This document shows, one piece after another, positions 6,963 through 7,590 of a DNA stretch of 64,000 bases. The number at the start of each line of letters is the position of its first letter. Positions within the stretch are counted from its first letter, which is position 1. The position numbers were made by a program, and so were the translations under genes. The stretch comes from Escherichia phage HY01. A model generated the notes under the pieces. It worked only from the letters and a program-made list of their open reading frames with translations, was not told the origin of the DNA and did not search any database. Location of the stretch: sequence record NC_027349.1; one strand, given 5' to 3'.

Positions 6963-7148
6963 CTATTCACCTTTAGAAATTTTATCCATAACGATAGCAA
7001 TTAAACCAATTAAAAATGCTACTACAAGTGAAAACACATTTTCTGCTGTAGTTAATAATCCGCATATAAATCCAGCAAACATTGAAAAACTAAAAGCGGA
7101 AGCAGAAATTGCAATAGCAACATTTCGAATTAATTCACAACGTTTCAT
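6963..7148 (-). CDS. small membrane protein (61 aa; 2 predicted TM helices)
   Basis: internal ATG at 7146-7148 preceded by GGAGAATAAA RBS and an early promoter cassette; hydrophobic AIAISASAFSFSMFAGFICGLL and VFSLVVAFLIGLIAIV. Confidence 0.55.
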   Translation of the reverse strand: MKRCELIRNVAIAISASAFSFSMFAGFICGLLTTAENVFSLVVAFLIGLIAIVMDKISKGE

Positions 7149-7174
7149 TTTATTCTCCTCGGTAGTTGATAGGG

Positions 7175-7223
7175 TAATAGTATCACTACTAAAACCCTGT
7201 GTAAACAACTTTGTGAAATATTT
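7175..7223 (-). repeat. direct repeat copy 1 of promoter cassette (TAATAGTATCACTAC-N10-GTAAACAACTTTGTGAAAT on the plus strand)
   Basis: blocks of 15/16 and 19/19 identity with the copy at 7540-7590, same spacing. Confidence 0.7.
7177..7206 (-). promoter_or_regulatory. early-type promoter cassette (-35 GTTTAC, -10 TACTAT)
   Basis: minus strand ATTTCACAAAGTTGTTTACA...GTAGTGATACTATTA; near-identical to the copy at 7544-7572. Confidence 0.55.
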
Positions 7224-7224
7224 A

Positions 7225-7512
7225 TTACAAAAGATTTTTAGCAATAATCTTGAGATGTGCCGCAGAAATGTGTTTAGCTTTAAACAACGCAGTTTCTTCA
7301 GCAGGAGAGATAATGATTGTAGCACCATCCTTTTTAGCAGACCACCCATCACCTAGGTAAACAGTACCTTTGATTTCTTCGCCATCAACCAAGCTAATCA
7401 TTGGTTTACCTTCTCGTCCTTTATTTGCTTTAATAACTTCAGAAGTAAGAGTAGCTTCGGTAATGGTAGAAACCGGGGTAGTTGTAGAAGTAAACTCTTT
7501 GAAAGTTTTCAT
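7225..7512 (-). CDS. ipI: internal protein I precursor (95 aa; CTS MKTFKEFTSTTTPVSTITE|A, predicted 76-aa mature protein)
   Basis: 95-aa precursor and 19-residue leader ending I-T-E fit T4 IPI/IPI* (76 aa) as recalled; position next to 57B; GGAAAATAAA RBS. Confidence 0.75.
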   Translation of the reverse strand: MKTFKEFTSTTTPVSTITEATLTSEVIKANKGREGKPMISLVDGEEIKGTVYLGDGWSAKKDGATIIISPAEETALFKAKHISAAHLKIIAKNLL

Positions 7513-7539
7513 TTTATTTTCCTAATTAATTTTGATGAG

Positions 7540-7590
7540 ATAATAGTATCACTACCTCATCAGCATGTAAACAACTTTGTGAAATTATTT
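7540..7590 (-). repeat. direct repeat copy 2 of promoter cassette flanking ipI
   Basis: see copy 1; the two copies bracket the ipI coding sequence. Confidence 0.7.
7544..7572 (-). promoter_or_regulatory. early-type promoter cassette (-35 GTTTAC, 17-nt spacer, -10 TACTAT) for ipI
   Basis: minus strand AATTTCACAAAGTTGTTTACA...GTAGTGATACTATTA. Confidence 0.55.

Follow-up and report, generated by a model that had tools for sequence, protein, structure and literature searches.

The ipI locus of phage HY01 and its repeated cassettes

We analyzed a stretch of 64,000 nucleotides (nt) of Escherichia phage HY01 (record NC_027349.1), called the window in the following. It contains the gene ipI, coding for internal protein I, between two copies of an intergenic repeat, here termed cassettes, which we consider very probable sites of gene exchange between related phages. 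All genes of the locus are encoded on the minus strand in the order gene 1 (dNMP kinase, 8282-8995), 57A (8040-8282), 57B, ipI and a gene for a protein of 61 amino acids (aa), downstream of which two further small genes and then the tRNA cluster are located. This agrees with the order in phage T4, which is 1, 57A, 57B, ipI, trna.4, trna.3, trna.2 and tRNAs. The homologue of the 61-aa gene is annotated in T4 as 'Trna.4 conserved hypothetical predicted membrane protein'. The genes and cassettes at the center of the analysis are:

7585-8040, minus strand: 57B, 151 aa, conserved left anchor of the locus (phrog_755, E 5e-68; position as T4 57B)
7513-7584, minus strand: cassette 1, 72-nt spacer with AT-rich stretch, promoter-like site, inverted repeat and ribosome site; same in T4
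7513-7522, minus strand: ribosome-site block GGAAAATAAA, abutting the ATG of ipI
7225-7512, minus strand: ipI, 95-aa precursor (phrog_4363, internal virion protein; annotation in phage PEC04; match to PDB 2JUB)
7149-7224, minus strand: cassette 2, 76-nt spacer from the ipI stop codon to the ATG of trna.4
7149-7158, minus strand: ribosome-site block GGAGAATAAA, abutting the ATG of trna.4
6963-7148, minus strand: trna.4 homologue, 61 aa, predicted membrane protein, conserved right anchor of the locus (phrog_1692; T4 annotation)

Read on the plus strand, the pattern TAATAGTATCACTAC-N11-GTAAACAACTTTGTGAAAT had two exact matches in the whole window, one at 7175-7219 and one at 7541-7585. All 34 specified bases were identical in both copies, and none of 100 dinucleotide-preserving shuffles contained a match. 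This bears out the original prediction of near-identical repeat blocks at 7175-7223 and 7540-7590. The 10-nt variable spacer it had placed between the conserved parts has to be corrected: with a gap of 10 nt the pattern gave no match at all, so the gap comprises 11 nt, namely 10 variable bases and a T common to both copies. Expressed on the gene strand, the cassettes share TTTCACAAAGTTGTTTACA, the 11-nt gap, GTAGTGATACTATTA and a ribosome site of the form GGA(A/G)AATAAA-ATG. A search for direct repeats gave longer units of 54 nt, located at 7166-7219 and 7532-7585, which are 80% identical. A second repeated block of 17 nt at 94% identity (7143-7159 versus 7507-7523) was returned as well, which contains the ribosome site and the ATG. 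The common ribosome-binding cassette said to precede each start codon is therefore present, as GGAAAATAAA-ATG in front of ipI and GGAGAATAAA-ATG in front of trna.4.

The cassettes take up the intergenic spaces completely, i.e. the 72 nt between the 57B stop codon and the ipI ATG and the 76 nt between the ipI stop codon and the trna.4 ATG. Their order on the gene strand is as follows: stop codon, the AT-rich TTTCACAAAGTT, GTTTACA, 10 variable nt, GTAGTGA-TACTAT-TA, approximately 8 variable nt, an A-rich linker and finally GGA(A/G)AATAAA-ATG. The 76-nt cassette sequence was found at 2,511 sites in 756 phage records. T4 contains both copies in equivalent places (73,515-73,590 and 73,879-73,951) with few base differences. 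A recent duplication private to phage HY01 was ruled out, as both copies are also present in T4, RB27 and many others. Two diverged copies were located elsewhere in the window:

3348-3412, minus strand: third cassette copy, 74% identity over 66 nt, 5' of an e.8-like 87-aa gene
63737-63810, minus strand: fourth cassette copy, 72% identity over 75 nt, 5' of a 110-aa open reading frame (ORF) at 63404-63736

The third copy retains TTTCACAAA..TGTTTACA and CTATCAACTACT and has no hairpin across the -10.

The gene enclosed by the two cassettes was identified by comparison with PDB 2JUB ('Internal protein I'), as residues 1-76 of chain A align over their entire length with residues 20-95 of the gene product, 75 of the 76 positions being identical (E 1.5e-44). 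The alignment starts at residue 20, hence the leader comprises the first 19 residues, MKTFKEF...ITE. The reading of ipI as T4 IPI with a 19-residue leader ending in I-T-E and a 76-aa product is thereby confirmed. In T4 the IPI leader is a capsid-targeting sequence which is cut off by the prohead protease, and the product, IPI*, is injected and inhibits the type IV restriction enzyme GmrSD. By analogy with T4, cleavage of the HY01 leader would be expected after ITE, giving a 76-residue GmrSD inhibitor. Over the region 6200-8300 (2,101 nt), Escherichia phage PEC04 (Tequatrovirus hy01) has the same sequence (100% identity), and many other Tequatrovirus genomes reach 94-97% identity.

Both cassettes carry promoter-like sites

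Scanning the minus strand with the promoter consensus gave the same arrangement in both cassettes, i.e. TTTACA, a spacer of 17 nt and TG-n-TACTAT, the latter representing a TG extended -10:

7543-7571, minus strand: promoter-like site of cassette 1, with TTTACA at 7566-7571, a 17-nt spacer, TG at 7550-7551 and TACTAT at 7543-7548
7177-7205, minus strand: promoter-like site of cassette 2, with TTTACA at 7200-7205, a 17-nt spacer, TG before the -10 and TACTAT at 7177-7182

The sequence 5' of TTTACA is AT-rich (AAAATAATTTCACAAAG or TAATAAATATTTCACAAAG), and the -35 follows the preceding stop codon after just 12-15 nt. Judged by spacing, transcription would start at A7536 in cassette 1 and at A7170 in cassette 2. 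The T4 early promoters described by Liebig and Ruger 1989 and Wilkens and Ruger 1994 likewise have a -35 of the GTTTAC type, 17 nt between the hexamers, a TG extended -10 and AT-rich sequence upstream. Each cassette thus reads as a putative T4-type early promoter. GTTTACA and TAnnAT also recur at further promoter-like sites of the window, most of which match the cassettes in the hexamers only.

An inverted repeat encloses the -10

The variable spacer proved to be one side of an inverted repeat, which the original prediction had not recognized: the spacer holds the 5' arm, and the 3' arm comes just after the -10. In cassette 1 the spacer holds TGATGAGG and the bases right after the -10 read (C/T)CTCATCA. 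The two inverted repeats are:

7533-7562, minus strand: inverted repeat of cassette 1, TGATGAGGTAGTG / TATTATCTCATCA, arms at 7533-7545 and 7550-7562, 13 pairs and a 4-nt loop
7171-7198, minus strand: inverted repeat of cassette 2, outer arms AGGGT / ACCCT and inner arms TAGTA / TACTA, enclosing the -10

Folded as RNA, cassette 1 reaches a free energy (dG) of -17.6 kcal/mol (z-score -3.8; -17.4 kcal/mol for the T4 copy) and cassette 2 reaches -14.9 kcal/mol (z-score -3.2); the T4 copies behave likewise. Between cassettes 1 and 2 the arms differ by matched changes on both sides. This matching extends to the relatives: 46 distinct cassette cores showed a mean minimum free energy of -11.05 kcal/mol and a mean z-score of -4.1 versus shuffles. 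Outside the conserved core we distinguished at least six unrelated arm types, all of them complementary to their partner (GATGAGG, TAGGGT, GGTCTATAG, AGGGCTAT, AGGGTTAT and TAGTGT). When the 3' halves were swapped among the cassettes the mean energy was -7.6 +/- 0.39, and none of 10,000 permutations was as stable as the natural pairing. Pairing takes place in two registers with centers 3 nt apart; the partner of the 3' half ACCCTATC is either TAGGGT or GATAGGGTA, depending on the register. For the matching of the arms we relied on the per-sequence fold z-scores and the half-swap permutation rather than on counts in a fixed register.

The fold of the gene-strand RNA was more stable than that of the opposite strand in 39 of the 46 cassettes; this asymmetry is a mere hint, since most G-U pairs are located in the conserved promoter core. 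A terminator scan returned three sites between 5000 and 10000, none of them at either cassette, and searching the cassettes against Rfam gave no family, only tRNAs and sub-threshold noise. Eight gene-strand promoter-like sites of the window precede a gene, and at four of them a hairpin spans the -10: both cassettes and the sites at 3058 and 63401. At one of the latter two (~3020-3058 and ~63365-63401, minus strand) the sequence is TAGGCTCAT...ATGAGCCTA (-16.8 kcal/mol, z-score -7.1), at the other TTGGTACAGG...CCTGTACC (-16.1 kcal/mol, z-score -5.6). The promoter-in-hairpin layout is therefore not limited to the ipI locus.

The 3' arm of the hairpin ends approximately at the predicted start of transcription. 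Consequently the hairpin would be missing from the transcript of its own cassette and be present only in RNA reading through from upstream. A possible, though doubtful, reading is that the hairpin is itself a selected structural element and does not simply result from the promoter. It would fold in sense read-through RNA ~25 nt past the stop codon of the preceding gene and thereby set or shield the 3' end of the upstream mRNA. It could also insulate the next unit without efficient termination. As the role of the hairpin we favor a 3' end mark or an insulator for the message of the preceding gene, the main alternative being a function in recombination at the level of DNA. If a structural role is true, T-even early promoters at variable loci have a second, structure-encoded function.

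Within gene 1, upstream of 57A-57B-ipI, we noticed a late-promoter motif TATAAATA at 8638-8645 (minus strand), which could yield a late ipI read-through RNA containing the cassette 1 hairpin.

Gene content of relatives changes at the cassettes

Variation of the locus was assessed in 8 annotated Tequatrovirus loci and 36 loci from IMG/VR (located via 57B); individual loci are referred to by L and a number. Both anchors were found in 30 loci. The distance between the 57B stop codon and the trna.4 start ranged from 67 to 1,663 bp in these 30, the interval containing none to several small genes. Nearly all of the small genes start with MKTYQEFI.E or MKTFKEF, i.e. with an internal-protein (IP) leader. 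At the Tequatrovirus loci examined, a cassette is located 5' of every gene in the interval, so that n genes are accompanied by n+1 cassettes. The record of one relative annotates an 'ipV ... replaces ipI' together with ipVI. While 57B is present in 558 phage records (501 at ≥95% identity), the ipI gene body was found in 142.

The breakpoints were located using gapped identity profiles against the window. Ungapped extension halts early at 1-nt indels before the ATG and gives the same picture. Where IP-like genes are replaced or inserted in 10 Tequatrovirus relatives, the change starts and stops within cassettes or in the first leader codons. Phage SHBML-50-1 (L005) has an 85-aa gene in place of ipI: identity is 90-100% up to ~7496, in the first leader codons, falls to 10-60% across the gene body and returns to 95-100% from ~7215, at the 5' edge of cassette 2. 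Phage KMB40 (L004) has an additional IP gene, an insertion of ~290 nt at ~7189 which falls between the -35 and the -10 of cassette 2. The homology of L039 breaks at ~7500 and ~7192, that of L040 at ~7574 and ~7181-7200.

The same gene can be preceded by differing 5' cassette halves, as observed for a 102-aa gene (L006 versus L039) and a 77-aa gene (L008 versus L040), and where the 5' halves differ the 3' half remains with the downstream gene. Chimeric cassettes with non-matching arms were found at position 351 in both L006 and L007 and at positions 12 and 345 in L032. In L025 the cassette core TACTATtacctcatcaa is duplicated in tandem at ~4673-4740 (gene strand), which looks like slippage or unequal crossing-over within a cassette.

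These findings correspond to the gene-content variation between related genomes that the original prediction had expected to be bounded by the repeats. As repeat-bounded variation is indeed present, the interpretation as gene shuffling survives.

Synteny is retained even outside of the genus. Klebsiella phage 15882-6-3 (L045, Jiaodavirus) has 57B, an IP gene, a cassette and a trna.4 homologue. Positions 2469-2562 of this locus are 91.7% identical to 7117-7212 of the window, comprising the cassette and the first trna.4 codons, in comparison to ~68% for 57B and gene 1. The cassette is hence far better conserved across genera than its coding neighbors. This points either to strong constraint or selection on the cassette or to exchange between the genera.

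In the record of phage GiZh (L046, KT184311) an 11-nt piece of the cassette (1806-1816) is labelled 'direct repeat sequence8 posible binding site of StbAB', and the depositors put an attL/attR feature inside gene 1. Both labels seem unfounded for a lytic phage of the T4 type.

The cassettes correspond to known elements of T-even internal protein loci

The arrangement is already known, having been described for T-even phages in 1994, and HY01 adds nothing new in kind. According to the accounts of Repoila et al. 1994 (EMBO J) in Arbiol 2010 (PMC2839356) and Comeau 2014 (PMC4122927), a T4 early promoter is located both 5' and 3' of IP genes and is accompanied at T-even IP loci by a weak AT-rich stem-loop. 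Recombination has been proposed to occur at such elements (PMC2839356, PMC4122927). Compared with the element as it is related there, we found nothing substantial that differs in HY01. The locus (ipI, 57B to tRNA region) and the phage group are the same. An intergenic sequence of ~70 bp (72 and 76 nt here) is located 5' and 3' of an IP gene, and its predicted early promoter, TTTACA, 17 nt, TG-n-TACTAT, matches the consensus. Both cassettes have the promoter-associated inverted repeat or weak AT-rich stem-loop, and the enclosed gene, ipI, codes for an internal protein with the conserved leader. Finally, the number and identity of the genes are polymorphic in relatives with boundaries at the elements. 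HY01 therefore appears as another isolate of the T4-type arrangement, with one IP gene. The abstract of the 1994 report is said to speak of a '~70 bp sequence' and an 'overlapping inverted repeat', both in agreement with the cassettes.

The original prediction had assigned the cassettes to the promoter early stem-loops (PeSLs), which were described for RB49/phi1 (PMC2839356) and later for PST/T4 and nt-1/KVP40 (PMC4122927). Like PeSLs, the cassettes recur between genes and combine a stem-loop with an AT-rich stretch, an early promoter of the sigma-70 type (predicted in the cassettes), a Shine-Dalgarno sequence and a start codon. The promoter consensus given for the PeSLs of PST/T4, TTTACW-N17-TAYWAT (Comeau 2014, PMC4122927), fits both copies, which read TTTACA-N17-TACTAT, and at the 3' end of each the Shine-Dalgarno sequence and start codon are found as in PeSLs (GGAAAATAAA-ATG and GGAGAATAAA-ATG). 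Likewise, elements of both types are found on either side of small accessory genes in hyperplastic regions, at the boundaries of indels and replacements between close relatives. The stem-loop is different: in PeSLs it is a terminator located just upstream of the promoter (PMC4122927), whereas in the cassettes it encloses the -10, is AT-rich, is A-rich on its 3' side and lacks a T-run. RB49 has G/C-rich stem-loops, and for one stem-loop of RB49/phi1 (PeSL211/210) terminator function was examined by means of a reporter assay (PMC2839356, PMC4122927). A further trait of PeSLs is the excision of minicircles, made up of a gene and its cassette, when neighboring copies recombine; for RB49 ORFan210 inverse PCR was used to detect such circles.

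Of the assignment to PeSLs, the predicted promoter, the ribosome site and the gene-shuffling boundaries thus stand, while the stem-loop, which straddles the -10 and is not terminator-like by scan, does not correspond. As the features of the IP-locus element are all present, with the early promoter as a predicted one, and the PeSL features compared here differ only in the position and terminator nature of the stem-loop, we filed the cassettes as T-even IP-locus cassettes which are PeSL-like.

The cassettes could nevertheless be PeSLs in the strict sense of Arbiol 2010, with the stem-loop acting as an intrinsic terminator and the promoter behind it restarting transcription. Besides the fit of both copies to the PST/T4 consensus of Comeau 2014 (PMC4122927), the predicted hairpin energies of -15 to -18 kcal/mol speak for this view, which was that of the original prediction. 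We consider it unlikely for several reasons. The stem-loop overlaps the -10 instead of preceding the promoter, and the 12-15 nt between stop codon and -35 contain no stem-loop. The bases after the stem are A-rich without a T-run, and as the terminator scan gave nothing terminator-like at the cassettes, termination by the stem-loop was rejected. Moreover, late transcripts starting from the TATAAATA motif at 8638-8645 would need to cross cassette 1 in order to reach ipI. The authors who described PeSLs refer to the IP-locus elements as their analogues, not homologues (Arbiol 2010, PMC2839356).

Probable exchange of gene units at the cassettes

We regard it as very probable that the two early-promoter cassettes, which bound a T-even ipI locus, serve as homology for the exchange of IP gene units. 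From each cassette the next gene would receive AT-rich upstream sequence, a sigma-70 early promoter of the T4 type and a ribosome site, and, judging from the consensus and from what is known of T4, unmodified host RNA polymerase would initiate at each of them right after infection. ipI and trna.4 would thus each form a self-sufficient expression unit. Every IP-type gene has a cassette of ~70 nt upstream, the next copy downstream and a conserved N-terminal leader. Cassettes and leader could offer sufficient homology to the phage's own recombination, by which whole units would be replaced, added or deleted between co-infecting relatives. T4 recombines at very short homologies, and together with the comparative pattern this suggests the recombination mechanism. 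Exchange of units at the cassettes would lead to differing sets of injected anti-restriction proteins at the locus among phages. The cassettes had originally been called mobile; this goes too far, as we saw no sign of autonomous mobility and the cassettes look like homology patches used by phage recombination.

The arms of the hairpin may ride on separate exchangeable halves of the cassette. A crossover in the core would in this case leave a hairpin with mismatched arms, and compensatory changes would restore the pairing later on.

Several observations weigh against this interpretation or parts of it. Breakpoints mark the present end of homology and not the mechanism behind the junctions. The loci are related to each other, so the counts of cassettes and hairpins do not represent independent events and are overstated. 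Promoter activity and start sites are predicted from the consensus; the T4 records NC_000866 and AF158101 annotate no promoter at the ipI locus, and our literature search yielded no T4 transcription-start map covering ipI. With respect to the hairpin, approximately 9 of the 46 cassettes lack it, indicating that it is not needed in every copy; several of these resemble recombinants. In addition, covariation in a fixed register is modest. In a gap-free alignment of 40 cassettes, 20 of 500 shuffles attained the observed percentage of paired cells in register 1. Register 2 did better, as none of 500 shuffles attained the percentage of paired cells and 3 of 500 attained the covariation score. This modest signal in any single register is due to the use of two registers by the cassettes.

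Concerning the inverted repeat, a role at the DNA level was considered: the repeat would form a cruciform or a hairpin in a single strand, and binding or cleavage of this structure by a structure-specific enzyme, e.g. T4 endonuclease VII, would turn the cassette into a recombination hotspot. Conserved PeSL stem-loops have been suggested speculatively as targets of a recombination protein by Arbiol 2010 (PMC2839356), crossovers in minicircles were mapped within a stem-loop (PMC2839356), and several of the breakpoints found here are located at the junction of spacer and -10, inside the hairpin. However, many breakpoints lie outside of it, in the leader or at the 5' edge, and the stems are short and AT-rich. 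The higher stability as gene-strand RNA in 39 of 46 cassettes, where G-T pairs would be mismatches in DNA, adds a weak argument, as much of this asymmetry stems from the conserved core. Altogether we judge such a role to be improbable.

The cassettes could also be just two strong early promoters, similar to each other because both approach the optimum of T4 early promoters, with no part in shuffling and with the locus varying by other means. In favor of this, the conserved parts coincide with promoter and ribosome-site elements, and GTTTACA and TAnnAT occur at other promoter-like sites of the window as well. The identity of the cassettes, however, extends beyond the hexamers to TTTCACAAAGTT, GTAGTGA and TATTA, to which the other sites of the window are far less similar, and the breakpoints of relatives at or inside the cassettes as well as the chimeric and duplicated cassettes argue against mere promoter similarity, which we therefore think has little chance of being correct. 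An operator for a dimeric DNA-binding regulator covering the -10 would agree with a palindrome centered on the -10, the classical position of a repressor, but is hardly credible, since the arm sequences differ wholly between copies with complementarity retained and the center of symmetry moves by 3 nt, which is the pattern of a folded strand and not of a sequence-specific protein site.

With the cassettes as exchange homology, HY01 repeats a textbook-level trait of T-even phages, i.e. cassette-like IP loci with genes for injected inhibitors of GmrSD-type restriction which are exchanged between phages. This exchange is of relevance to host range and to the engineering of phages: as natural sites of insertion, the cassettes could take up payload genes, which would thereby have a promoter and a ribosome site of their own. 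The co-varying -10 hairpin is the sole part that might repay experiment.

Further observations in the window

A 157-aa ORF at 3563-4036 (minus strand) has an IP-like leader, MKSYAQFLNEA, and belongs to phrog_2280 of unknown function. Upstream of it the late-promoter motif TATAAATA is located at 4077-4084. The ORF is flanked by a direct repeat of 35 nt with 94% identity (3524-3558 and 4082-4116), which represents a GC-rich hairpin with a T-run, AGCCCCGACC(G/A)AAAGGTTGGGGCTTTTT. T4 has one copy of the GC-rich hairpin and lacks the 157-aa gene. Here, apparently for a second time, a gene lies between copies of a regulatory element, the element being a putative terminator instead of a promoter.

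Within the tRNA cluster, an ORF for a GIY-YIG seg-type homing endonuclease (5296-5946, minus strand) is located between tRNA-Ser (5200-5289) and tRNA-Gly (5951-6024). No tRNA-Pro was found in the tRNA cluster of the window. RB27 and other relatives have tRNA-Pro at the position of the seg-type ORF, and PEC04 annotates a remnant of this ORF as segD.

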